This document shows, in pieces, positions 4,331 through 59,067 of a stretch of DNA of 64,000 nucleotides (position 1 is the stretch's first letter; every line of letters begins with the position of its first letter). The notes under the pieces are model-generated. The model saw only the letters and a list, made by a program, of their open reading frames with translations. It ran no database searches and had not been told where the DNA came from. The DNA comes from Deltaproteobacteria bacterium (lineage in GTDB: Bacteria; Desulfobacterota; B13-G15; RBG-16-54-18), in contig JAFGNJ010000027.1 of assembly GCA_016927065.1 (NCBI GenBank), positions 36,506 to 100,505 of the forward strand, given 5' to 3'. The translations under genes and the position numbers were made by a program.

Positions 4331-4344
4331 GAGAGGGCAGAGAG

Positions 4345-5955
4345 ATGTTTTTTTATTATAATATTATAATCGCTATCGTATACCTTATCGTCTTGGTCTC
4401 CCTTGCATACAAGGTGCATACGAGGACCAGCACGGCCTCCGATAATACGATCGCCGCCAGAGAGATGCGCCCCAGTGTGATGGCCTTATCGTATGGGGCG
4501 GGATTTCTCGGTACGACGGCGGTTATTGGATTTGGAGGGGCTGCGGCATTGTTTGGGTGTTCCCTCTTGTGGTTGAGTTTTTTCACTATCCTTGTGGGGA
4601 TTTTTATAGCCTTCGTTTTTTTCGGCAGGCGGACCCGACGCATGGGGATGGCCCTCAATGCCCATACCTTTCCGGAAATTTTGGGTGAGCGGTATCAGTC
4701 TCGTTTCATTCAGGGTTTTGCCGGGATGGTGGTCTTTGTCTTTATCCCCATCTATGCAGCCGCTATCCTCATCGGGGTCGCACGGTTCATCGAGGTTTTC
4801 CTCCATATACCCTATGTCGTGGCTCTAGGAACGTTCTCATTTTTTTTAGTTCTGTACGTTATCCTGGGCGGGTTTAAGGCCGTGTTGTATACCGATGCCT
4901 TTCAGGGTGTTGTCATGTTTGTCCTGATGGTGATCTTTTGCTACTTGACCTACCATATCCTTGGTGGAATCATTCCAGCTCATCAGGCCCTGACTGATAT
5001 CGCCCCGCTGGTCCCTGAACACTTGGTCCGCGAAGGTCATCTGGGTTGGACGGCAGGGCTGAGAATAGGGAGCCCCTTGTGGTGGACTGCGTGGTCCAGC
5101 CTCATCTACGGTGTGGGGATCGGTATTCTCGCTCAACCCCAGCTCGTTGAGAGATTTTTGAGGTCCCCTTCGGATCGAGATTTGAACCGTTCCGTATTGG
5201 TGGGAGGGATTTTTCTTTTGGCCATGATCGGGGTCCCTCTCACCGTCGGCCCCTTGACCAATAGTATTTTTATGGAAAGGTTTGGCTACATTGCTATAGT
5301 CATGGCCGAAGGAAATATGGATAAGATCATTCCGCTCTATATCGATACCGTTATGCCCTGGTGGTTTGGCATTGTCTTTCTGATGGGGATCTTGACGGCC
5401 TCTCTGGCTGCCTTAAGCTCGCAATTGCATGTAGGAGGCGCTTCTTTTGGGAGGGATTTTTACGGCAAGGCCATGGGGCTGCATGGGGCGATGGAGGGTT
5501 TTACCACTAAGTTGGGGATAACCATGACCATTATCGCAACTATTCTTTGGGGGCTTGTGTTGCCTCCGAGCGTGATCGTTCGCGCTACCGCCTTCTTTTT
5601 TGGACTTTGCGCCGCCTCTTTTTTACCGCTCTATTTTTTTGGCCTCTATTGGAAGGGGGTTACCAAGGCAGGGGGTATCGCAAGCATGGTGGGGGGGATC
5701 GTGGTAAGTTTTATCTGGATGATTTTTTTTCACGACCAGGAATCAACGATCATCGGGCTTTGCCGAGTCCTCTTCGGCGCGTCAAACCTGGTGGCGGACT
5801 TTCCGCCTCACTCCTGGATATGGCAGTTGCAGTATGTGGACCCCGTTATCGTCGCCCTTCCCCTCTCCTGTGTCCTCTGCTTACTGGTCAGCTCTCTGAC
5901 GCGGAAGATGCCCAGGGGCCACCTCAACCTCTGTTTTAAGTATATATCAAAATAA
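4345..5955 (+). CDS. sodium:solute symporter family transporter
   Basis: Polytopic protein with SSS-like N-terminal TM pattern; ATG at 4345 preceded by AGAGGG Shine-Dalgarno; longest ORF begins at GTG 4186. Confidence 0.85.
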   Translation: MFFYYNIIIAIVYLIVLVSLAYKVHTRTSTASDNTIAAREMRPSVMALSYGAGFLGTTAVIGFGGAAALFGCSLLWLSFFTILVGIFIAFVFFGRRTRRMGMALNAHTFPEILGERYQSRFIQGFAGMVVFVFIPIYAAAILIGVARFIEVFLHIPYVVALGTFSFFLVLYVILGGFKAVLYTDAFQGVVMFVLMVIFCYLTYHILGGIIPAHQALTDIAPLVPEHLVREGHLGWTAGLRIGSPLWWTAWSSLIYGVGIGILAQPQLVERFLRSPSDRDLNRSVLVGGIFLLAMIGVPLTVGPLTNSIFMERFGYIAIVMAEGNMDKIIPLYIDTVMPWWFGIVFLMGILTASLAALSSQLHVGGASFGRDFYGKAMGLHGAMEGFTTKLGITMTIIATILWGLVLPPSVIVRATAFFFGLCAASFLPLYFFGLYWKGVTKAGGIASMVGGIVVSFIWMIFFHDQESTIIGLCRVLFGASNLVADFPPHSWIWQLQYVDPVIVALPLSCVLCLLVSSLTRKMPRGHLNLCFKYISK

Positions 5956-6058
5956 AGGGTTCAAGCGTATTGTCATAGAGAAAGTCATTAGATCTTCAGC
6001 CCTTGCATATCTGAGATGAATCAATTGTCTCTTCGCGATGTTTTGGAAGAGCCCCTTC

Positions 6059-7054
6059 TCATTTCCTTTTCATCACCCTACCTTTTGATGCCTTCCTTGT
6101 TATCCTCCTCTTTTTCCTCTTGGGGATTTTTTTGAGTGATTCGGCTTCGACGAATATTTTCTTCACAGCGGACACTTGCTCTTGGATGCCCCGTTCTACC
6201 TTATCGATGGCCTCCTCGACCTGATCCGTGTTGAGGCCGTCCACAAAGTTGACGTCGATGTTGACCAGAATTTCCTCAGGTCCCAGGTGCATGGTGAGTA
6301 GATTTACAACTTCCTTTACCTCTGGGACAGTGTTGATGGCCGCCCTGATTTTTCTCAAATCTCCCTGTGATACCCCCTCCCCGATCAGGAGGCTCTTGGT
6401 TTCTAAGAAGAGTACAAAGGCTACCAGCGCAAGGATAATCCCAATGACAATAGAAGCCACGCCATCGAAGACGGGATTTTTGGTGAGTGATGAGAGAAGG
6501 ATACCCCCCAAGGCTATAGAGAGCCCGAGAATGGCGGCGGAATCCTCCATAAAGATGATGAAGATGGCCGGTGTCTTTGAATCACGGATAGTCCTAAAGA
6601 CCCCCCGTCTTTTAATGGTCCCCTTCAATGTGCGGAAGGCAATCCGCCAGGAATAACTATCAAAGAAGAAGGAGAGAACAATTACTACATACCCCCATCC
6701 TGCGTGCCTGAGAGGTTCGGGGTGGAGGATTTTTGTGATCCCTTCATGAACGGAGAAGACGGCCCCAATGATGAAGACGGAGAGAGAGACGACAAAGGCC
6801 CAGAAGTATCGCTCCATGCCGTAGCCAAAGGGGTGGTTTCGGTCAGGGGGGCGGGTGCTCAGCCGTAACCCCAGCAGGAGGAAGGCCTGGTTGCTCGTAT
6901 CTGCCAGGGAGTGAAAGCCCTCGGCCAACAGGGCGGTGCTGTTAATGAAGATGGCGACGGTGAACTTCATGAGGGCGATGAAGATATTGGCCGTCAAGGC
7001 CACTCTTACCGCCCGTTTTGTCCTGGAAGTCGCTGTTGTTAAATCCTCTAACAC
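6059..7054 (-). CDS. cation diffusion facilitator family divalent-metal efflux transporter
   Basis: CDF signature region FHSLADTSNQAFLLLGLRLSTRPPDRNHPFGYGMERYF, six TM helices, cytoplasmic C-terminal domain. Confidence 0.85.
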   Translation of the reverse strand: MLEDLTTATSRTKRAVRVALTANIFIALMKFTVAIFINSTALLAEGFHSLADTSNQAFLLLGLRLSTRPPDRNHPFGYGMERYFWAFVVSLSVFIIGAVFSVHEGITKILHPEPLRHAGWGYVVIVLSFFFDSYSWRIAFRTLKGTIKRRGVFRTIRDSKTPAIFIIFMEDSAAILGLSIALGGILLSSLTKNPVFDGVASIVIGIILALVAFVLFLETKSLLIGEGVSQGDLRKIRAAINTVPEVKEVVNLLTMHLGPEEILVNIDVNFVDGLNTDQVEEAIDKVERGIQEQVSAVKKIFVEAESLKKIPKRKKRRITRKASKGRVMKRK

Positions 7055-7062
7055 CTGGTTTT

Positions 7063-8493
7063 TCAGAGTTCCTCCACGGTGATCAGATTGGTGGTCCCCG
7101 GCAAATCGACCGGGGTCCCTGCCGTAACCACCACCCGCTGACCCTTAGTCACCCATTCCTGCTGGAGGGCGGCGGTGATCCCCTTGCCCACGATCTCATC
7201 GACGTTGGTGAATTCGGGCACCAGGATGGGGTGCACACCCCAGGAGAGGATGAGTTGCCTGACAGTGGTGGGTTGGGGACTAAAGGCGAGGATGGGATAG
7301 CGGGGTCGATATCGGGAGACCAAACGGGCTGTCCTGCCTGTACGAGTGGGGGTAATAATCGCAGCCACTCCCAGGTCCTCGGCCAACTGGCAGGCGGCAT
7401 GGCTCATAGAATCGGCGATCTCCCCCTTCTGATACGGGTCGGTGGGGAGGAAGGCTGCATGGGGGAAACTTCGCTCCGTCGCCTCGGCGATCATCACCAT
7501 GAACCGCACCGCCTCGACAGGATATCTCCCCATGGCGGTCTCTTCCGATAGCATGATGGCATCGGTGCCGTCGAAGATGGCGTTGGCCACATCCGATGCC
7601 TCAGCTCTGGTGGGCCGCGGAGTATCCACCATTGACCGCAGCATCTGGGTGGCGGTGATAACGGGTTTCCCAAGGCTATTGGCCCGCTTGATCAGGTCTT
7701 TTTGCACCAGAGGGACCTGCTCCAGAGGAATCTCAACACCCAGATCACCTCTGGCCACCATGATGCCGTCGGCCTCGTTCATGATCTCTTCAATGTGTTG
7801 TAAGGCCTCGTGTCGTTCTATTTTTGCGATGATGGGAATATCGGCATGATGAGAATTCAAGACCTCCCTGGCATCTTGAATATCCTCACCCCCCCTGACG
7901 TAGGAAAGTGCGACGAAGTCTACCTCCGCCTGTACACCGAACAGGAGATCGTCCTTATCTTTGTCCGTGAGGACCTTTGTCCGCAATTCTCCACTGGGGA
8001 TATTGATGCCTTTATGGGAACTGAGGTCTCCTCCCACCACCACCTGACACGTAATCTCAGGGGGCTGAATCGCAACTACCGTGACCTCGAGAGTTCCATC
8101 CGCCAGCAGGATTGAGTTTCCCTCGCTGACGTCGTTTGTCAGACCAGGGTAGGTGACCGATAGCTTCTGTGCATTGCCCATGATTTGTTCTGTAGTCAAG
8201 GTGACGGTTGTGCCCGTTTCCAGATGTACGGTTCCTCCCTCGATCTCCCCCACTCGTACCTTTCCCCCACCGAGGTCTTGGAGGATGGCCACCGGTCTCC
8301 CAGCCTTTTCGCTTAGTCGCTTCAACAGAGTGATTTTTTCGCCATGGTCCCGACGATCTCCATGGGAGAAGTTGAGACGAGCCACATCCATGCCTTGTCT
8401 GATCATCTCCTCCATGATGACGGGATTACTGCTGGCTGGCCCGATGGTACAAACTATTTTTGTCTTTCTTATTTTCTTGCTTGGTTCCTTCAC
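7063..8493 (-). CDS. pyk: pyruvate kinase
   Basis: KIVCTIGPAS N-terminus, MVARGDLGVEIP motif, full-length 476 aa; GTG start. Confidence 0.95.
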   Translation of the reverse strand: MKEPSKKIRKTKIVCTIGPASSNPVIMEEMIRQGMDVARLNFSHGDRRDHGEKITLLKRLSEKAGRPVAILQDLGGGKVRVGEIEGGTVHLETGTTVTLTTEQIMGNAQKLSVTYPGLTNDVSEGNSILLADGTLEVTVVAIQPPEITCQVVVGGDLSSHKGINIPSGELRTKVLTDKDKDDLLFGVQAEVDFVALSYVRGGEDIQDAREVLNSHHADIPIIAKIERHEALQHIEEIMNEADGIMVARGDLGVEIPLEQVPLVQKDLIKRANSLGKPVITATQMLRSMVDTPRPTRAEASDVANAIFDGTDAIMLSEETAMGRYPVEAVRFMVMIAEATERSFPHAAFLPTDPYQKGEIADSMSHAACQLAEDLGVAAIITPTRTGRTARLVSRYRPRYPILAFSPQPTTVRQLILSWGVHPILVPEFTNVDEIVGKGITAALQQEWVTKGQRVVVTAGTPVDLPGTTNLITVEEL

Positions 8494-9205: not shown

Positions 9206-10522
9206 CTATCCCCCTTTCTTTCCCTTGCTTGAAGAGAAGACTCGCTTATATATTACAGTAACATACTTGAGATGGCTATTCAAGTCGAAAACCCCTTGGA
9301 TTTCTTTCACGCTCAGCATAGCGGTGATATCCTTGTCATTCTGGACTAATTGTAGAAAATCCGCTTGCTCTCTCCACGCCCGCATGGCATTACGCTGCAC
9401 CCAGTGGTAGGCATCCCCTCGCGCAACACCCTTCCTGATGAGGGCCAAGAGGAGCTGCTGAGAGGCAATAAGCCCCTTGGTCAGATCGAGGTTCTTCTTC
9501 ATCCGGTCGGGATATACCACCAGTCCCTTGATGATATGGGTGAGCCGAGCAAGCATGTAATCCACGAGGATGGTGCTGTCCGGGGCGATGACTCGCTCCA
9601 CCGAGGAGTGGCTGATGTCCCGTTCGTGCCAGAGGGGGATGTTCTCCAGAGAAGCGAGGGAATTGGCCCTTACCAGTCGGGCCAGGCCGGAGAGATTCTC
9701 CGACCCGATAGGGTTTCTCTTGTGGGGCATGGCTGAAGAGCCCTTTTGACCTTCGGCGAATGGTTCCTCGGCCTCCATGACCTCGGTGCGTTGCAGGTGG
9801 CGGATCTCCACGGCGAACTTTTCTATTGAGGAAGCGATCAACGCCAGGGCCGTGAAGAATTCGGCATGCCTATCCCGTTGGATAATCTGTGAAGAAACGG
9901 GGTCGGGGGTGAGCCCCAGTTTTTTACAGACGTATGCCTCCACAGCCGGAGGGGCGTTGGCAAAGGTGCCCACGGCACCCGATAGTTTGCCCACGCTGAT
10001 GGCTGCGATGGCCCGTTCCATGCGCCCTCGGTTGCGGTGCATCTCCTCGTACCAGAGGGCCATCTTGAGGCCGAAGGTGATGGGCTCGGCGTGCACGCCA
10101 TGGGTCCGGCCGATCATGGCCGTCTCTTTATATTTAAAGGCCTTTTCCTTGATCGCCTCCATGAGGTTATTGATGTCTTCAATGATGATTCGTCCCGCCT
10201 CCCGGAGTCTCAGTGAGAGGGCGGTGTCGACGATATCGTAGGAGGTGAGCCCGAAATGGATATACCTTCCCGCATCGCCCACTGTTTCTTCCAATTGGCC
10301 CACGAAAGCGGCAACGTCGTGTTTGGTCTCGTGCTCGATTTCTTCAATGCGTTGAGTGTCGATGTGCGCCCGTTTTTTGATCTGTTGCACGGCCTCAGAA
10401 GGGATCTCTCCCAGCTCGGCCCAGGCCTCGCAGGCCAAGATCTCCACCTTAAGCCAGGTCTGATATTTATGCTCCTCGCTCCAGAGCGCCCCCATCTTTT
10501 CTCTCGTGTATCGCGAGATCAC
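9206..10522 (-). CDS. purB: adenylosuccinate lyase
   Basis: Fumarate-lyase signature SSAMPHKRNP and TSYDIVDTA motif; 438 aa. Confidence 0.95.
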   Translation of the reverse strand: MISRYTREKMGALWSEEHKYQTWLKVEILACEAWAELGEIPSEAVQQIKKRAHIDTQRIEEIEHETKHDVAAFVGQLEETVGDAGRYIHFGLTSYDIVDTALSLRLREAGRIIIEDINNLMEAIKEKAFKYKETAMIGRTHGVHAEPITFGLKMALWYEEMHRNRGRMERAIAAISVGKLSGAVGTFANAPPAVEAYVCKKLGLTPDPVSSQIIQRDRHAEFFTALALIASSIEKFAVEIRHLQRTEVMEAEEPFAEGQKGSSAMPHKRNPIGSENLSGLARLVRANSLASLENIPLWHERDISHSSVERVIAPDSTILVDYMLARLTHIIKGLVVYPDRMKKNLDLTKGLIASQQLLLALIRKGVARGDAYHWVQRNAMRAWREQADFLQLVQNDKDITAMLSVKEIQGVFDLNSHLKYVTVIYKRVFSSSKGKKGG

Positions 10523-10626
10523 CGTTATCGCTCCTTATCTGTTGATTACTTAACTCTAAGGGAGAAGGGGAGAGTTGTCAATGTGAAAATAGAAAGCGCC
10601 AAGGCATGCCGTTTTATACGGTAACC

Positions 10627-10655
10627 TTGACACCCCTTTGAGGCCCTGTTAGATT
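10627..10655 (+). promoter_or_regulatory. sigma70-like promoter (TTGACA - 17 nt - TAGATT) upstream of the GalT-like operon
   Basis: Hexamers and spacing read directly; about 40 nt upstream of the ATG at 10693. Confidence 0.35.
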
Positions 10656-10692
10656 GTTTTCATTGTGCTGAATCTTTCAGAGGAGTTGCAGA

Positions 10693-11718
10693 ATGGGAAT
10701 AGCCTTTAAGGGACGGTTCCAAAACGCGAAAATCTTGGATCCGAAAACGGGATATGAAGAAACAACACTAACCTTGGAAACGAGGTGGGACCCCCTGACG
10801 AAGCGGTCGGTAAGGGTCCTCGATCTCCCCATTAAAAAGCTTGCTACCATGGATATTGATGAAATTCTGAAAAGGGCAGAGGATATTCCGTGTCCCTTTT
10901 GCCCCGATGCTTTGGACGAGGTCACCCCCCGTTTTCCGAATGATTTCATCGAGGGGGGGAGGCTGTGCTTTGGCGAGGTCTGTATTATCCCCAATAGACT
11001 TCCCTTTGATCGATACTGTGCCGTCGTTGTGCTCACTCATCAGCACTATGTTCCTCTCGTCGATTTTACCGAGGAGCAGCTTTTTAACGGGTTTTCCACC
11101 GCCTGTGTCTTCCTGCGCAGGCTCGTAGAGGTGGATTCCTCGGTACGCTTCTTTTCCATCAACTGGAATTATCTCCCCATGTCGGGGGGGAGCATTATCC
11201 ATCCCCACCTTCAAATCATTGGGGGAGATCTCCCGACACACTACCAAGGAGAGATGATCCGGGGGGCGAGGGAATATCGCCAGCAATGGGAAGCTTCTTT
11301 TTGGGATGAGTTAATCGCTAAGGAAAAGGAACTTGGAGAGCGTTATATTGGTGCTGTCGGCAATACGGTGTGGCTGGCGAGCTATGCGCCGTTTGGCTTG
11401 GGTGATACTATGGCCGTTTTTCGTGAACGGACTTCCCTTCTCAATCTCACTGATCAGGATCTGAGAGATTTTACCCAAGGTCTGCTCAAGGTTTTCCGGT
11501 ATTATCAGGAATTCAATTACTATAGTTTCAACCTTAGTCTCTATTCTGGTGAATACGGCGGTGATGACTCCTTTTGGGTAAACGCCAGGATGCTGGCAAG
11601 GAGGTTATTGCCTCCGGTGGGGGCGAGCGATGTCAGTTACTTTGAGAAGTTGCACGGGGAGCCGATCGCATACAAAAGACCTGAACGGCAGTGCGAGGAG
11701 ATGCGAGGGTATTTCTAG
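10693..11718 (+). CDS. GalT-like HIT-superfamily nucleotidyltransferase (galactose-1-phosphate uridylyltransferase family)
   Basis: CPFC zinc-site motif and HPH active-site motif (SIIHPHLQIIGG). Confidence 0.7.
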   Translation: MGIAFKGRFQNAKILDPKTGYEETTLTLETRWDPLTKRSVRVLDLPIKKLATMDIDEILKRAEDIPCPFCPDALDEVTPRFPNDFIEGGRLCFGEVCIIPNRLPFDRYCAVVVLTHQHYVPLVDFTEEQLFNGFSTACVFLRRLVEVDSSVRFFSINWNYLPMSGGSIIHPHLQIIGGDLPTHYQGEMIRGAREYRQQWEASFWDELIAKEKELGERYIGAVGNTVWLASYAPFGLGDTMAVFRERTSLLNLTDQDLRDFTQGLLKVFRYYQEFNYYSFNLSLYSGEYGGDDSFWVNARMLARRLLPPVGASDVSYFEKLHGEPIAYKRPERQCEEMRGYF

Positions 11719-11919
11719 AGACTGTTTTTAGATGCCTGTTGAAAAGTGTTCCGTGGAACAGCAGCCCTCAATATCCGTAGCATCGTGGCGTTCTTCACTA
11801 CCTACGGCCTTGAGTTTAGATGAATTCCCCTCTCCTCGAAACGGCATGACATTGCTGCTGTCAGGGGTGGGGCAAGGACGATCCCTCAGGGGGTTGTTCC
11901 CGTTGCAGGGGAGCGAAAG

Positions 11920-13032
11920 ATGATATTACCCAACGAGGTCTATGTAGATTCCGCTTTGGAGACTCATCCGGTTGTCCATCGGATACGGCAAGGGCTTGAT
12001 CATCTCCCGTGGCATTCCCGAGGCGATCTCGACAGGGTGATTCAGGATGTCCTCTCCTACCAATCGGATCCCTGTGCTGCGGGGAAACAAATTCTCTGTA
12101 TCCGACCTTACCAGGGAAAACTGGTGAAGGATTGCCCTGGGACCATAGGGCACATCTGCTGCGGCTACAAGATCATCAACGTCATGACCAATTGCCCCCT
12201 CGATTGTTCGTACTGCATCCTCCAAACCTATTTGAACAACCCCTGTCTGACACTCTATCCAGAATTCACACGAATTTTCAGTGAAATAGACGAGATCCTG
12301 GATGCGCATCCTCATCGGATCTTTAGGTTTGGCACGGGGGAATTGGGGGACAGCCTGGCCCTCGATGGTATCGTCCGTTTTGCCGATGAGGCCGTCCCCC
12401 TTTTCGCTCGAAAGCTAAACGCGATCTTTGAGATCAAGACCAAGGCCTGTTCAGTGGATCACCTCCTTACCCTGAACCATGGGGGAAGGACCGTGTGCTC
12501 CTGGTCCCTCAATCCACCAACTGTGATAGAAGGAGAAGAGCATAGGGCAGCCTCCCTTGAGGAACGTTTGCGGGCGGCAAGCCGCTGCGCTGATGCGGGG
12601 TATCACGTGGGATTTCACTTTGACCCCCTCATCGCTTATCCGGGATGGGATGATGACTATCGCAGGGTGGTGGACCTCCTCTTTGAGCACATCGAACCCT
12701 GCAGGGCCATCTGGGTGAGTCTCGGTGCACTGCGCTGTTCCACCTCACTGAAACAGGTAGCCCAAGAGCGATTCCCGACCTCGCGTATATTCTCCGGCGA
12801 GTTGATACGGGGCGAGGATGGAAAGTTACGCTACCTCAAGCCCCTCAGGGTAGCGATGTACCGGCATATGGTCTCGTGGCTGAGATCCTATGACGCGGAA
12901 CTCTTTATTTATCTTTGTATGGAGCGGGATGACGTCTGGCAGGAGGTCTTCGGCACCAGCCCGGGGAGCACCGCGGGTCTCAACAGCTGGTTTGAGGAAC
13001 GCGTTCGGCAATTCACCGAAGGTGGACAATGA
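11920..13032 (+). CDS. radical SAM protein, spore photoproduct lyase (SplB) family
   Basis: CPLDCSYC radical SAM cysteine triad (CxxxCxxC) in SplB-like context. Confidence 0.75.
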   Translation: MILPNEVYVDSALETHPVVHRIRQGLDHLPWHSRGDLDRVIQDVLSYQSDPCAAGKQILCIRPYQGKLVKDCPGTIGHICCGYKIINVMTNCPLDCSYCILQTYLNNPCLTLYPEFTRIFSEIDEILDAHPHRIFRFGTGELGDSLALDGIVRFADEAVPLFARKLNAIFEIKTKACSVDHLLTLNHGGRTVCSWSLNPPTVIEGEEHRAASLEERLRAASRCADAGYHVGFHFDPLIAYPGWDDDYRRVVDLLFEHIEPCRAIWVSLGALRCSTSLKQVAQERFPTSRIFSGELIRGEDGKLRYLKPLRVAMYRHMVSWLRSYDAELFIYLCMERDDVWQEVFGTSPGSTAGLNSWFEERVRQFTEGGQ

Positions 13033-54808: not shown

Positions 54809-56134
54809 GTGGAGGTTACAGGGTTGACCAAAACCAAAAAAAGAAAGATGCGGTTGGAGCATTTGACCAAATTTCAAGATAAAGTCTCGCAGTGTATGAA
54901 GTGTGGCTTCTGTATGTACTTCTGTCCTGTCTACCGGGAGATCCATACTGAACCTGTCGTAGCTCGGGGAAGGAATGTCCTCGCCATGGAACTCCTGGAG
55001 GGCGTCCCCTTTGATTGGGGGCACTTGGAAGAACGCTATAGTAAATGTCTTACGTGTAATCGATGCGCTCAATTCTGCCCTGCAAAAGTAGAAGTAGCCA
55101 CCATCACCATGGCAGCCAGGGCTGATATCGTTGCCAATAAAGGACTCCCCTTTGCCAAGAAGGTAGTATTTGAAAAACTCCTGAAGAAGAGAGGCCTCTT
55201 TGGTAGGGTGTTGAAGCTTGCCTCGAAGCTTCAGTGGTTGCTTCCGAGGACAAAGGGGAAGATCCGTCACCTTCCCGTCTTCCTTTCCGCCCTGGCCAAA
55301 GGCAGACAGATTCCGGAGATCGCCCCTACGTTTCTGCGCGATAAACTCCCAGAGATCAACTCACCCCCGCCGGGGGTCACAAAGCGTATGCGGGTCGCCT
55401 TTTTCGTGGGGTGTGCCACTGATTATGTCTTTCCTGACGTAGGGAAGCGGACCATAGACTTCCTGACCAGCCAGGGAGTTGAGGTGGTCTTCCCCAAAGG
55501 ACAGGGGTGTTGCGGAATGCCGGTTTTTGGTAGCGGCGATTTTGTTACCGCCAGGGAGATGGCCGATAGAAACGTAGCGGTCTTTTCTCAGTTGAAAGAT
55601 GTGGATTACATCGTTACCTCCTGTGCGACATGTGGGTCTGCCTTGAAAGAGGGGTATATAACCTACTTAGCGGATACCCCAGACAGGGAACAGCGGTATA
55701 AAGAGTTTAGGGACAAAGTGAAGGATATCAACGAATTCATCATCGATATTCTCAAGCCCCCTCCTGAGGCGTTTCGCACTACCTTGCCCAAGGGGACTAA
55801 AATCACGTACCATGATCCCTGCCATTTGGTGCGGTATCAGAATATCTCAGCGCAGCCGCGTGAGGTCATTAAGTCCATCCCGGGTCTAGAGCTAGTGGAG
55901 ATGAGGGAGCCGGACCGATGCTGCGGCATGGGGGGGTCTTTCAATGTTCAATACTATGACCTCTCAAAGAAGATAGCCGATCATAAGATGAAAGCAATCG
56001 CCGATACCGACGCCGATATCGTGGTTACGGCCTGCCCTGGTTGCATGATTCAATTGATCGACAACACTATCCAGAAGAAAATGCCCCAGCGGGTGATGCA
56101 CGTGATGGAGCTGTTGGGTTCAAGGACTGATTAA
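54809..56134 (+). CDS. (Fe-S)-binding oxidoreductase subunit with two 4Fe-4S motifs and two CCG domains (GlcF/GlpC/LutA-like)
   Basis: CMKCGFCMYFCP and CLTCNRCAQFCP ferredoxin motifs; CCG motifs GCCGMP and CCGMGG. Confidence 0.8.
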   Translation: MEVTGLTKTKKRKMRLEHLTKFQDKVSQCMKCGFCMYFCPVYREIHTEPVVARGRNVLAMELLEGVPFDWGHLEERYSKCLTCNRCAQFCPAKVEVATITMAARADIVANKGLPFAKKVVFEKLLKKRGLFGRVLKLASKLQWLLPRTKGKIRHLPVFLSALAKGRQIPEIAPTFLRDKLPEINSPPPGVTKRMRVAFFVGCATDYVFPDVGKRTIDFLTSQGVEVVFPKGQGCCGMPVFGSGDFVTAREMADRNVAVFSQLKDVDYIVTSCATCGSALKEGYITYLADTPDREQRYKEFRDKVKDINEFIIDILKPPPEAFRTTLPKGTKITYHDPCHLVRYQNISAQPREVIKSIPGLELVEMREPDRCCGMGGSFNVQYYDLSKKIADHKMKAIADTDADIVVTACPGCMIQLIDNTIQKKMPQRVMHVMELLGSRTD

Positions 56135-56155: not shown

Positions 56156-56413
56156 CTAGATCTCCTCTTGGTGCTTTTTCTCCTGTAAACTCTTTCGGAT
56201 CTCAGAGATGATAGCGTTGGCCTTCGCCTCCAGCTCTTCAGGCACCATGACTGCTGCCCACCCCTTTTGGGGGATGAAAATCCCGTCGTAGGCGGTATCG
56301 TGATAGGATCTGATCATACAGGGGATTTCTTCCTCTTGTAAGGTCTGGGCGATTAGATCCGCTTCGAATTTATTTTCGGCTACCGTGATTTTTTTGTAGT
56401 TTTCCCCGCTCAT
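56156..56413 (-). CDS. small DUF2007-like protein
   Basis: 85 aa, acidic; pattern similar to DUF2007 family. Confidence 0.4.
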   Translation of the reverse strand: MSGENYKKITVAENKFEADLIAQTLQEEEIPCMIRSYHDTAYDGIFIPQKGWAAVMVPEELEAKANAIISEIRKSLQEKKHQEEI

Positions 56414-56495: not shown

Positions 56496-57707
56496 TTGAT
56501 TGTTGTTCTCACTAACGATACTATGGTATCGGTGAGGGAGATGATGGGAACCCACCGGCTTACGCGGAGGGAATTTTTAGCGACCTGCGGCAAAGGTCTT
56601 TTGGCCCTTACCGCTACCCCCCTTGTCTTGCACAGTGAGGCTTACCCTTCTGAAAAAACCGGGTTGGAGAGTGGATGGGGATTGGTGGAGACAAAACTCT
56701 CCCTCTATTTTCAACCCCTTACAGACAACGACGTTCAGTGTTTACTTTGCCCACGGGAGTGCGTGATCTCCGCAGGTGAAAGGGGGTATTGTGAGGTAAG
56801 GGAAAACAGAAAAGGGAAGCTATACAGCCTCGTTTATGGGAATCCCTGCGCAGTCCATATAGATCCTATCGAGAAAAAACCGTTTTTCCATGTTCTGCCG
56901 GCAACCCCTTCATTTTCCATCGCTACCGCGGGTTGCAACTTCGACTGCAAGTTCTGCCAGAATTGGGAGATTTCTCAGGAGGTGCCGGAGAAAACCCTCA
57001 ATTTCCGATTACCACCTGCTCAGGTGGTGGAGATGGCCCGCGAGAATCGATGCCTTAGCATTGCATCGACCTATGTAGAGCCTACCATCTTCTTCGAGTA
57101 CATGTATGACATCTCGGTTCTGGCCAAGAAGAAGGGGATCTTGAGCGTCTATCACTCCAATGGCTATATTAATCCCCAGCCCTTGGCAGGCCTCAGCCCT
57201 TATCTGGGGGCCGCCTGTATTGACCTTAAAGGTTTTACCAATGATTTCTATCAGGAAATGACTGAAGGAAGTCTTGAGCCGGTCCTGCGCACCATCAAGA
57301 CCTTACGGCAGAAGGGTGTTCACGTGGAGTTGGTCAATCTTGTTATCCCCACTAAGAATGATGATATGAAGGTGGTGCAAGAGATGTGTCAGTGGATCAA
57401 GGAGGAACTCGGTCCTGATGTTCCTCTCCATTTCAGCCGCTTTTATCCTCTGTATAAACTGCGCAATCTCCCCCCCACCCCGGTGAAGACTCTGGAACGG
57501 GCGAGGGAAACCGCACTCGCTGTCGGCCTTGAATATGTCTATATCGGGAACGTCCCTGGCCATGCAGGGGAGAATACCTACTGCCCCCATTGTAAGAAGG
57601 TCCTCATCGCCAGGAAGGGGTATTATATCCTTGCCAATCATGTGATCAAAGGACGGTGTAAATATTGCGGCAAGGAGATCCCCGGGATCTGGAAGGAGTG
57701 GTTGTAG
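56496..57707 (+). CDS. radical SAM enzyme of the PFL-activase-like / AmmeMemoRadiSam type with twin-arginine-like N-terminus
   Basis: N-terminal Cys cluster CLLCPREC...YCEV then GCNFDCKFCQN radical SAM motif; N-terminus THRLTRREFLATCGKGLLALTATPLVL. Confidence 0.75.
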   Translation: MIVVLTNDTMVSVREMMGTHRLTRREFLATCGKGLLALTATPLVLHSEAYPSEKTGLESGWGLVETKLSLYFQPLTDNDVQCLLCPRECVISAGERGYCEVRENRKGKLYSLVYGNPCAVHIDPIEKKPFFHVLPATPSFSIATAGCNFDCKFCQNWEISQEVPEKTLNFRLPPAQVVEMARENRCLSIASTYVEPTIFFEYMYDISVLAKKKGILSVYHSNGYINPQPLAGLSPYLGAACIDLKGFTNDFYQEMTEGSLEPVLRTIKTLRQKGVHVELVNLVIPTKNDDMKVVQEMCQWIKEELGPDVPLHFSRFYPLYKLRNLPPTPVKTLERARETALAVGLEYVYIGNVPGHAGENTYCPHCKKVLIARKGYYILANHVIKGRCKYCGKEIPGIWKEWL

Positions 57708-57720
57708 GAGTGTGAGATAC

Positions 57721-59067
57721 TCACCACTGGGCTGGCGCCCGTAAAGGGCCTTCCCACTTGGCATGAATCTCTCGCATCTTGCTGCGCCACATGGAGAAGT
57801 TGAGGATTAAGGCCAGTGGGATATTTTTGAGAGGGGCATGCCAAAGCCGCGAGATAATGGAACGCGGCGCGCAACAATACTTTTTGGCCCAGAGATAGCC
57901 CTCCTGTAGTTCATCGGGGGTCATTAAGGCGGGAAGAAAGAGGACTTGCCCGACATCGTATTTACGCCAATCCTTGCTTGCTTCCAGAAGGCGACCTTCC
58001 TTGATGAGGCGGCGCCGCAACGCGGTGCCTGGGTAGGGGGTAAGGATTGAGAAGACCGGCACCTCCATTCCCGACTCTTGGACATAGTCCACCGTACGGC
58101 GAAAGATATCCCTGGTGTCATCGTCGTGTCCAAAGATAAAGGCCCCCTGAACGATGATCCCCGCTCGGTGGAAGTCACGCACATGCTGTGTAAACTGCTT
58201 TGTACTGGCCCACGATTTTCCCGCTATGTCGAGGTTTAATTGATCAAGGGATTCGAAACCGACAAAGAGCTGTGTGCAGCCACTTTTTGCCGCTAGATCG
58301 AGGAGTTCCGGGTCTTCTGACATCCTGAGGGAGGCAAAACTCGCCCAGCGGATCTTGAGGGGAATCAGGGCTCGAAGCAATTCCTTGGCATATCGAGGGG
58401 TGCCGCCGATGTTATCGTCGACGAAGAAGACGTTGAGCTGCGAGTAGATATCCGATACTTCTTTGATCTCGGCTACTACGTCCTGCACCGGGCGGGGCCG
58501 GTATTTGTATCCAAAGAAGAGGGGAACCGAACAAAATTCGCAATTATTAGGACAGCCTCGGGTGGCTTGCGCGGCAAAAATATGGCGGTGATGGTGCCGC
58601 CGCAAGAGGTCTCTGCGAGCGAAAGGTTTTCCATAGATAGGAGGTGGTTTGGGAGAGTGATAGATGTTTTTCAGTGTTCCTGCGCTGAGGTCCGCTAAAA
58701 GCATTGGCATAACTCCTTCGGCTTCTCCTCGCACCACCGCATCGCAGTGTTCCAAGGCTTCCTCCGGTTCATTACTGACATGCAGACCGCCCATCACCAC
58801 GGGGATCGAGCGGGAGCGAAAGTAGTCCGCCAATTCATAGGCATGGGGCGCATTCATGGTAAGGGAGGAGATCCCCACCACATCCGCCTCCCTATTCAAG
58901 TCCACTGGCTCTAGATCCTCGTCCACTACTTCGACCTCCCATTCCTCTTCGGGGAAGAGGGCGGCAACTGTGGTGATACCGAGGACAGGGAAGGGGAACG
59001 GAGGGTGATCCGAGCTCACCACGGATTTATCGATGGCATGGATCAAATATGCTTTCCGTCTTGACAT
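57721..59067 (-). CDS. B12-binding domain radical SAM protein
   Basis: N-terminal B12-binding-like domain, radical SAM motif ATRGCPNNCEFCSV. Confidence 0.8.
   Translation of the reverse strand: MSRRKAYLIHAIDKSVVSSDHPPFPFPVLGITTVAALFPEEEWEVEVVDEDLEPVDLNREADVVGISSLTMNAPHAYELADYFRSRSIPVVMGGLHVSNEPEEALEHCDAVVRGEAEGVMPMLLADLSAGTLKNIYHSPKPPPIYGKPFARRDLLRRHHHRHIFAAQATRGCPNNCEFCSVPLFFGYKYRPRPVQDVVAEIKEVSDIYSQLNVFFVDDNIGGTPRYAKELLRALIPLKIRWASFASLRMSEDPELLDLAAKSGCTQLFVGFESLDQLNLDIAGKSWASTKQFTQHVRDFHRAGIIVQGAFIFGHDDDTRDIFRRTVDYVQESGMEVPVFSILTPYPGTALRRRLIKEGRLLEASKDWRKYDVGQVLFLPALMTPDELQEGYLWAKKYCCAPRSIISRLWHAPLKNIPLALILNFSMWRSKMREIHAKWEGPLRAPAQW

Follow-up and report, generated by a model that had tools for sequence, protein, structure and literature searches.

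Memo and AMMECR1 proteins are linked to human disease, and their molecular function is an old puzzle. Radical S-adenosylmethionine (SAM) enzymes are, to our knowledge, treated as strictly cytoplasmic, since each turnover needs SAM and an electron of very low potential. The connection of one such enzyme with Memo and AMMECR1, in what is called the AmmeMemoRadiSam system, is known from the models TIGR04335 to TIGR04337 and from the literature (PMC2034487; Burroughs et al. 2019, J Biol Chem 294:10211, cited in PMC7159879), and RNA base modification has been guessed as the role of AMMECR1 together with the TIGR04337 enzyme (PMC2034487). The present analysis concerns a gene for a TIGR04337-type enzyme contained in a 64,000-nucleotide stretch of contig JAFGNJ010000027.1, from a Deltaproteobacteria bacterium; the whole stretch is referred to as the window. 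The encoded protein differs from the canonical family members by an N-terminal extension resembling a twin-arginine translocation (Tat) signal. With a probability of about 0.7, we consider this extension to be a genuine Tat signal peptide, with which the enzyme would be exported or anchored.

The enzyme and its N-terminal signal

The maximal open reading frame (ORF) starts at a TTG codon. The limits proposed for the gene in an earlier note on this DNA are those of the maximal ORF and, as such, are correct; as limits of the gene they extend about 45 nt too far in the 5' direction. Translation most likely begins at ATG 56541, giving 388 aa (MMGTHRL), or at ATG 56544, giving 387 aa (MGTHRL), because these are the starts of two identical database proteins, P0001 and P0002, and because in close homologs only 3-8 residues precede the twin arginines. 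P0001 (388 aa, starting with MMGTHRL) has the NCBI name 'AmmeMemoRadiSam system radical SAM enzyme [Deltaproteobacteria bacterium]', while P0002 has 387 aa. Residue numbers refer to the 387-aa protein, and the features are collected in Table 1.

Table 1. Features of the enzyme gene and of its surroundings in the window
Feature	Position	Strand	Basis or remark
Maximal ORF	56496..57707	+	403 aa from TTG 56496
Gene for AmmeMemoRadiSam-type radical SAM enzyme precursor, 387 aa	56544..57707	+	ORF list, TIGR04337, database proteins P0001/P0002
Predicted Tat signal peptide, residues 1-33	56544..56642	+	Sequence, TIGR01409, AF2, hydropathy
Twin-arginine motif T-R-R-E-F-L, residues T7-R8-R9-E10-F11-L12	56562..56579	+	Sequence, alignments
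Catalytic domain (TIGR04337 match), residues 55-384; partial TIM-barrel, PflA-type radical SAM fold	56706..57695	+	HMM range, AF2
N-terminal Cys4 motif CLLCPRECx9C (C66, C69, C73, C83), presumed auxiliary metal/Fe-S site	56739..56792	+	Alignments
Radical SAM cluster motif CNFDCKFC (C131, C135, C138; residues 131-138)	56934..56957	+	Sequence, Pfam, alignments
C-terminal CPHC...CKYC (C347, C350, C372, C375), presumed zinc-ribbon-like or second auxiliary site	57582..57668	+	Alignments
HdrD/GlpC-like CCG/4Fe-4S protein gene	54809-56134	+	Upstream of enzyme gene; conserved in all five orphan loci
Small DUF2007 protein gene	56156-56413	-	Divergent from enzyme gene; conserved in all five orphan loci
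B12-binding radical SAM gene	57721-59067	-	Convergent with enzyme gene
Molybdopterin-binding oxidoreductase domain protein, 205 aa	63007-63624	-	PF00174, 115 bits

The protein is confirmed as a member of the AmmeMemoRadiSam family with a fold like that of the pyruvate formate-lyase activating enzyme (PflA). The TIGR04337 hidden Markov model (HMM; NCBIfam, AmmeMemoRadiSam radical SAM enzyme) matches with 366.3 bits, against a cutoff of 220, over model positions 3-334 of 349, starting at residue 71 of the maximal ORF; Pfam reports Radical_SAM (PF04055) only, with 69.7 bits versus a gathering threshold of 29.5. The AlphaFold 2 (AF2) model has a mean predicted local distance difference test (pLDDT) value of 85.9, with a core, from about residue 41, over 90. 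The fold is of the PflA/HydE type, and the best matches of the model among PDB folds are PflA structures (3cb8/8fo0), with a template modelling score of about 0.8 on the target and 15-17% identity, while a search by sequence returned no solved structure at E < 1e-3. The family call of the earlier note, AmmeMemoRadiSam of the PflA type, was therefore correct.

The peptide THRLTRREFLATCGKGLLALTATPLVL is present in the translation of the maximal ORF, along which MMGTHRLTRREFLATCGKGLLALTATPLVLHSEAYPSEK is followed by CLLCPRECx9C, CNFDCKFC and, near the C-terminus, CPHC...CKYC. A Tat-consensus N-terminus placed ahead of a Cys cluster and a CxxxCxxC core, as described in the same note, is thus confirmed, and its motif is conserved in homologs. 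The predicted signal, MGTHRLTRREFLATCGKGLLALTATPLVLHSEA, is made up of the n-region MGTHRL, the twin-arginine motif, the h-region GLLALTATPLVL and the c-region HSEA, with a possible signal-peptidase site after S-E-A. The protein agrees with the S/T-R-R-x-F-L-K consensus of Tat signals near the N-terminus (residues 7-12), and also has a moderately hydrophobic h-region followed by small -3/-1 residues. A reading of the letters 'LATC' as a lipoprotein lipobox was ruled out: the Cys immediately follows RRxFL and so precedes the h-region, and its conservation is limited to a clade.

The Tat character was judged by three proxies: the curated Tat-signal HMM TIGR01409, whose result is given with the objections below, hydropathy and the AF2 structure. 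The hydropathy of the h-region, taken as the 12-residue Kyte-Doolittle maximum, is 1.95, inside the range of the Tat-type class defined below, and residues 1-40 lie outside the AF2 fold, with pLDDT values of 32-53. Since this is the only ORF of at least 150 aa in the window combining [ST]RRx[FLIVM][LIVMF] with a hydrophobic stretch at its N-terminus, and since the motif is conserved in homologs, the twin arginines are more than a chance occurrence.

Both Cys4 motifs are invariant in alignments A1 and A3; the N-terminal one, where we infer a bound metal, is kept at 85% or more in both signal-less and Tat classes, and the C-terminal CxxC...CxxC in 50 of the 51 Tat-class genes from genome loci. 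Signal-less members have 53 columns conserved at 85% or more, and in 48 of these the Tat class shows an identical residue, again at 85% or more; the columns common to both classes include all 11 Cys, DPxEKKP, GCNxxCxxCxN and TYxxP. Judging from these conserved cysteines and family positions, the chemistry appears unchanged in the Tat class, which seems, if anything, more constrained than the signal-less one.

Conservation of the signal and exported partners in relatives

Among the 120 best homologs (61-100% identity), the N-terminal motif has the form RRx[F..][L..] in 94, T-K-R-x-F in 17 and T-R-K-x-F in 3. The extension, with RR, KR or RK, is thus present in 114 of them, the other six being shorter gene calls. 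The earlier note had named homologs without the extension, or a true start further downstream, as outcomes that would speak against its proposal; the alignment showed the extension throughout the full-length proteins, and the start most likely lies ahead of the motif.

A wider sample was obtained by a genome scan, with one genome per species, which gave at least 600 pattern matches, 593 of those listed encoding relatives; the best 80 loci were kept. These contain 89 family genes, of which 53 have a Tat-like N-terminus, 15 a very hydrophobic N-terminus of Sec or anchor type without RR, and 21 neither. Tat-like N-termini occur in at least 12 phyla, the genes coming from Thermodesulfobacteriota, Desulfobacterales, Desulfomonilia, Bacteroidota, Ignavibacteriota, Acidobacteriota, Planctomycetota, Omnitrophota, Verrucomicrobiota, Chloroflexota, KSB1, Eisenbacteria and one metagenome-assembled genome of Aenigmatarchaeota. 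When representatives of clusters at 50% identity are considered, 25 of the 135 with intact cores (of 150 listed) are Tat-like.

The motif is maintained while the surrounding sequence diverges. An alignment of 116 diverse N-termini, whose members had been selected for [RK]R, has a mean column identity of 15%; within it the second Arg (R9, corresponding to R10 of the MMGTHRL sequence) is invariant and Phe is found at 90% or more, and in alignment A1 both R8 and R9 reach at least 90%. The Arg codons of syntenic relatives differ synonymously (CGG AGG, AGA AGG, CGC AGG, CGC CGG). TIGR01409 matches 64 of the 116 N-termini at E <= 0.1, the best value being 8e-6, and the other recurrent HMM matches are only to signals of proteins that are established substrates of Tat, among them formate dehydrogenase, the NiFeSe hydrogenase small subunit, TorA and PhsA. 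Tat signals are known to differ from Sec signals in a lower hydrophobicity and a higher content of Gly, Ala, Ser and Thr, and the same contrast is found here: h-regions of the Tat class average 1.77, versus 2.96 for the signals of partner Memo-AMMECR1 proteins, a set pre-filtered for hydrophobic N-termini (p about 1e-33), and contain 46% of these four residues versus 29%. When mapped onto a neighbour-joining tree built from 254 catalytic domains, the Tat label requires 17 changes, compared with about 81 (minimum 68) after shuffling; for this reason the label is taken to mark clades rather than scattered accidents.

The Sec/anchor-type genes come mostly from Omnitrophota (loci L012, L013, L014, L016, L018, L020, L026, L031, L036, L044, L057, L066 and L069). 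They lack RR, but CxxxCxxC is kept in 14 of 14 and the C-terminal CxxC...CxxC in 12 of 14. At three further loci (L037, L049, L054), CxxCH insertions (CGDCH, CLKCH, CGTCH), each following an ARFW-like element, are located between the signal region and the CxxCPxxC motif, and may represent a duplicated N-terminal motif or a haem-c attachment site.

In relatives at 64-66% identity (L003, L004/5, L006/7, L008), the enzyme gene is contained within AmmeMemoRadiSam operons, together with Memo and AMMECR1 genes, and there the Memo-AMMECR1 fusion, or one AMMECR1 copy, starts with a classical signal, such as MKYLKKFIPIFLFLILYHSAWG or MAKRFLLSILIVLISLTVQG. Over the 80 loci, all 24 complete Memo-AMMECR1 fusions found beside Tat-class enzymes bear a Sec or lipoprotein signal, frequently with a lipobox (LVPGC, FLCSC, LLNSC, FPAGC); fusions beside Sec/anchor-class enzymes have a signal in six cases out of six, and Memo-AMMECR1 beside signal-less enzymes in six cases, with two lacking it. 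Homologs of one exported fusion have a hydrophobic N-terminal signal in 96 of 120. These partner signals suggest an exported version of the whole system, instead of a peculiarity of a single enzyme. Other sets are fully cytoplasmic (L082, L087, and L074, where an 815-aa protein encoded at 9935-12379 on the plus strand joins radical SAM, Memo and AMMECR1 domains and has no signal), and at L064 one cytoplasmic and one exported set are adjacent. Two of the operons, L003 (8667-9966) and L004 (6966-9902), contain both signal-bearing and signal-less Memo/AMMECR1 paralogs, with one radical SAM gene only, of the Tat type.

Other genes recur in the same loci. One of them encodes a polytopic membrane protein of 700-830 aa with a central spermidine-synthase-like domain, matching NF037959 ('fused MFS/spermidine synthase') with 52-59 bits (cutoff 40) and PF01564. 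Matches to it by tblastn (E <= 1e-5) were found at 53 loci, 51 of them distinct, with ORFs of at least 600 aa in 43; the gene is usually directly beside that of the enzyme, as at L004 (11395-13734, minus strand) and L072 (about 4691-6823, plus strand). A crude positive-inside count weakly suggests a periplasmic location of the soluble domain in 36 of the 43. DUF362 proteins of about 330-360 aa, with Tat signals of their own (for example MTSRRGFLKRGLLLGGAAIVG), are encoded directly upstream of the enzyme at nine loci, in a lineage-specific manner (L019, L023, L027, L030, L039, L058, L063, L068, L080). Some Bacteroidota have a small (about 110 aa) His-rich protein with four transmembrane segments and a weak DUF4405 match (19 bits), which could serve as a haem-b electron conduit; its gene precedes that of the MFS/spermidine-synthase-like protein at L055 (about 7465-7797) and L072 (about 4343-4681), and the two are fused at L064 and L073.

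Proposed export of the enzyme and competing explanations

According to the explanation that we prefer, the enzyme would fold in the cytoplasm and there acquire three metal centres, namely the radical-SAM [4Fe-4S] cluster and those of the two Cys4 sites; TatBC would recognize T-R-R-E-F-L, and the folded enzyme would be moved to the periplasmic side of the inner membrane, where the signal would be either cut after HSEA or kept as an anchor. Tat export makes sense for such an enzyme because Fe-S centres have to be assembled in the cytoplasm, and Sec cannot transport a protein that already contains them. Outside, the enzyme would carry out the radical reaction that cytoplasmic family members perform with SAM, on an envelope or membrane substrate or on a partner protein, acting together with exported Memo-AMMECR1 proteins; in most relatives the polytopic MFS/spermidine-synthase-like protein is also present.

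The nature of the substrate can be narrowed to some extent. An exported enzyme could not modify RNA, so the published guess of RNA base modification could not apply to this version, which would point to a membrane or envelope substrate or to a partner protein. A partner as substrate is plausible because of the protein-activase fold and of the invariant RGCIG cysteine of AMMECR1, earlier proposed to carry a radical (PMC2034487); an enzyme acting on a Sec-exported partner would have to meet it after the partner has folded outside. Alternatively, the substrate may be a lipid or isoprenoid of the membrane that is accessible on both sides, which would fit the coexistence of Tat, anchor-like and cytoplasmic enzymes with exported partners. 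Memo has reportedly been linked by Burroughs et al. to 'nucleotide base and aliphatic isoprenoid modification'.

More tentatively, and with appreciably less confidence than in export itself, a self-contained extracytoplasmic radical SAM pathway may be envisaged. It would consist of the Tat enzyme, exported Memo-AMMECR1 and the MFS/spermidine-synthase-like protein with its SAM-fold domain in the periplasm, and would work as an envelope-side machine, modifying a membrane lipid or isoprenoid or activating a partner protein. SAM could arrive by way of the membrane partner. It could also cross together with the folded enzyme, as a ligand taken along by Tat, which would give a pre-loaded and possibly single-turnover activase. 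Electrons would come from exported partners of DUF362/ferredoxin type or similar to cytochrome b.

Several points weigh against export. The window peptide scores 15.2-15.5 bits with TIGR01409, just under the cutoff of 16.7, and Pfam assigned the N-terminal peptides to no family, hence to no TAT-signal family. We know of no periplasmic source of SAM and of no low-potential reductant there, so that catalysis outside would call for an additional supply. Sec-type N-termini on 14-15 homologs, which keep the cluster cysteines, are hard to reconcile with the export of an Fe-S holo-protein and could mean that these N-termini act as anchors. The six loci combining exported Memo-AMMECR1 with a signal-less enzyme imply that co-localization of enzyme and partner is not obligatory, and a further difficulty lies in the mixed paralogs of L003 and L004, next to a single Tat-type enzyme. 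In the window, tblastn searches for Memo, AMMECR1, Memo-AMMECR1, MFS-SpeE, DUF4405-like, DUF362, TatA and TatC proteins were all negative. Finally, all the evidence is computational.

The alternative that survives best is a variant of the preferred explanation, differing only in the fate of the signal: inserted by Tat and left uncleaved, as in Rieske proteins, it would form an N-terminal membrane anchor holding the catalytic domain on the periplasmic face, by a membrane-embedded substrate. The partners of the relatives are attached to the membrane as lipoproteins or span it several times, the N-termini of some homologs are hydrophobic enough to resemble anchors, and the c-region H-S-E-A of the window protein is only a moderate -3/-1 site, all of which would suit an anchor. 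In many homologs, on the other hand, a good A-x-A c-region (AEA, AHA, ADA, AQA) immediately precedes the point where conservation of the domain sets in, and a stable anchor would be expected to have a longer and more hydrophobic h-region. A permanent anchor is regarded as possible, with the odds clearly on the other side.

An enzyme that stays in the cytoplasm, using the Tat-like peptide as a membrane-targeting, chaperone-binding or regulatory tail, like the vestigial motif of NarG, and working at the cytoplasmic face of the membrane, would pose no problem of SAM and electron supply. The six loci with a signal-less enzyme beside exported Memo-AMMECR1 show that the radical SAM step can be cytoplasmic in this kind of system, and signal-less Memo/AMMECR1 copies are also found in the operons L003 and L004. 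Vestigial Tat motifs, however, lose RR, as in NarG, whereas purifying selection clearly maintains RR/KR here, in many phyla; n-, h- and c-regions are all retained, and the partners beside Tat-class enzymes are exported in every one of the 24 cases. We consider the cytoplasmic location unlikely, and give it this much weight because of the gap in SAM and donor supply, the Sec-type homologs, the six mixed systems and the two operons with mixed paralogs.

Export without SAM radical chemistry outside is less probable still. The protein would then belong to a periplasmic Memo-AMMECR1 complex, in which its Fe-S centres would transfer electrons or have a structural role, or it would act once, in the cytoplasm, before export. 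The three putative metal centres and the lack of any known periplasmic SAM are compatible with such a role, but conservation of all SAM-cluster and family signature residues in the Tat class equals or exceeds that in cytoplasmic members, and the 48 shared columns argue against a catalytically retired protein. The proposal that the N-terminal region is untranslated, so that translation would begin further on, for instance at the GTG of VETKLS..., and the Tat-like sequence would have arisen by chance in the 5' leader, may draw on the few database gene calls that begin there (P0013, P0040) and on the TTG/GTG codons at 56683/56686, but is already essentially refuted, as the frame stays open, the peptide is conserved in distant relatives with synonymous changes in the Arg codons, and Rfam gave no credible match, to a SAM riboswitch or any other regulatory RNA, in the 130-nt leader.

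If the preferred explanation holds, a Tat-signal clade spread over a dozen or more phyla, with exported partners, challenges the view of radical SAM enzymes as strictly cytoplasmic. The conserved signal suggests that radical SAM chemistry takes place outside the inner membrane in many anaerobic bacteria, and raises a concrete question, namely by which route SAM and reducing power reach the periplasm. This would surprise specialists of radical SAM enzymes, and would give a handle on the function of Memo and AMMECR1 that is testable in bacteria, with the reservation that the finding is drawn from sequences and that the window copy is without its presumed partners in 64 kb.

The orphan locus and its relation to described systems

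The earlier note had reported no AMMECR1 or Memo gene nearby, and tblastn of four Memo/AMMECR1 proteins against the window agrees, giving nothing better than E = 0.36; none was found either within 10 kb on each side of the enzyme gene in four syntenic relatives. The window copy is therefore an orphan, with partner genes not linked to it. Its close relatives (L001, L002, L088, L089, L090; 68-100% identity) have a different, shared neighbourhood, composed of an HdrD/GlpC-like CCG protein, a divergent DUF2007 gene, the enzyme gene and a PpiD/SurA-like periplasmic chaperone. The enzyme gene appears monocistronic, having a divergent neighbour upstream and a convergent one downstream. The latter encodes a B12-binding radical SAM protein scoring 111 bits with HpnJ and 92 bits with TIGR04072 (lipid biosynthesis B12-binding/radical SAM), both far under the cutoffs; it is found in the same place in L002 and L089, and is absent from L088 and L090. 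LPS-kinase-like and glycosyltransferase genes surround the orphan loci, with a lipid-A-acyltransferase-like gene in L088 and L089.

Genes for Tat components are found 5-9 kb downstream of the orthologous gene in the relatives L088 and L089 (71-79% identity): tatC in both (16084-16863 in L088, 16847-17617 in L089) and tatA in L089 (19684-19878). Neither gene is present in the equivalent part of the window. The molybdopterin-binding oxidoreductase domain protein encoded further downstream in the window has an N-terminus, MKHLIWISLIFAGIGLMACPAPQ, of Sec or lipoprotein appearance, and not of the Tat type usual for cofactor-containing periplasmic enzymes.

A literature search returned no paper on a Tat-exported or periplasmic radical SAM enzyme, or on export signals in AmmeMemoRadiSam systems; Burroughs et al. 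2019 may mention membrane-linked contexts, and automatic annotation may already flag the signal. The best fold match is with PflA and the glycyl-radical activases, which have, like the window enzyme, a CxxxCxxC motif near the N-terminus of a partial barrel, and JGI names many homologs 'pyruvate formate lyase activating enzyme'. The window enzyme stays, however, far below the activase models (TIGR02493, 42.9 versus 231.75 bits; TIGR02494, 32.4 versus 174.35 bits), shares 15-17% identity and has additional N- and C-terminal Cys4 motifs; no glycyl-radical enzyme gene was found in its neighbourhood. PflA, moreover, is cytoplasmic.

As regards the signal, the closest likeness is with Tat-exported Fe-S proteins, such as the small subunits of [NiFe] and [NiFeSe] hydrogenases, formate dehydrogenase and Rieske proteins, which share the S/T-R-R-x-F-L motif and receive their cofactors before transport, and whose signal regions are cross-matched by the N-termini of the enzyme family. 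Those proteins only transfer electrons or use periplasmic substrates, whereas a radical SAM enzyme needs SAM and a very low-potential electron at each turnover. Radical SAM chemistry linked to a periplasmic end product, as proposed here, is seen with the anaerobic sulfatase-maturing enzymes and with HxsB/HxsC of the HXS anti-phage system, in which radical SAM enzymes mature a periplasmic effector (PMC13128918). In those cases it is the substrate that bears an export signal, and the enzymes are assumed to have acted on it by the time it is exported, while here the signal is on the enzyme itself.

The canonical, signal-less TIGR04337 enzymes, which occur with AMMECR1-like (TIGR04335) and Memo-like (TIGR04336) proteins, share with the window enzyme all 11 Cys and the great majority of family positions. 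The window enzyme adds a 33-residue Tat-type signal and is not linked to Memo or AMMECR1; in its relatives the partners are exported and the polytopic MFS/spermidine-synthase-like protein joins them. The Tat-exported or Tat-anchored form would thus represent a variant of a known but uncharacterised system.

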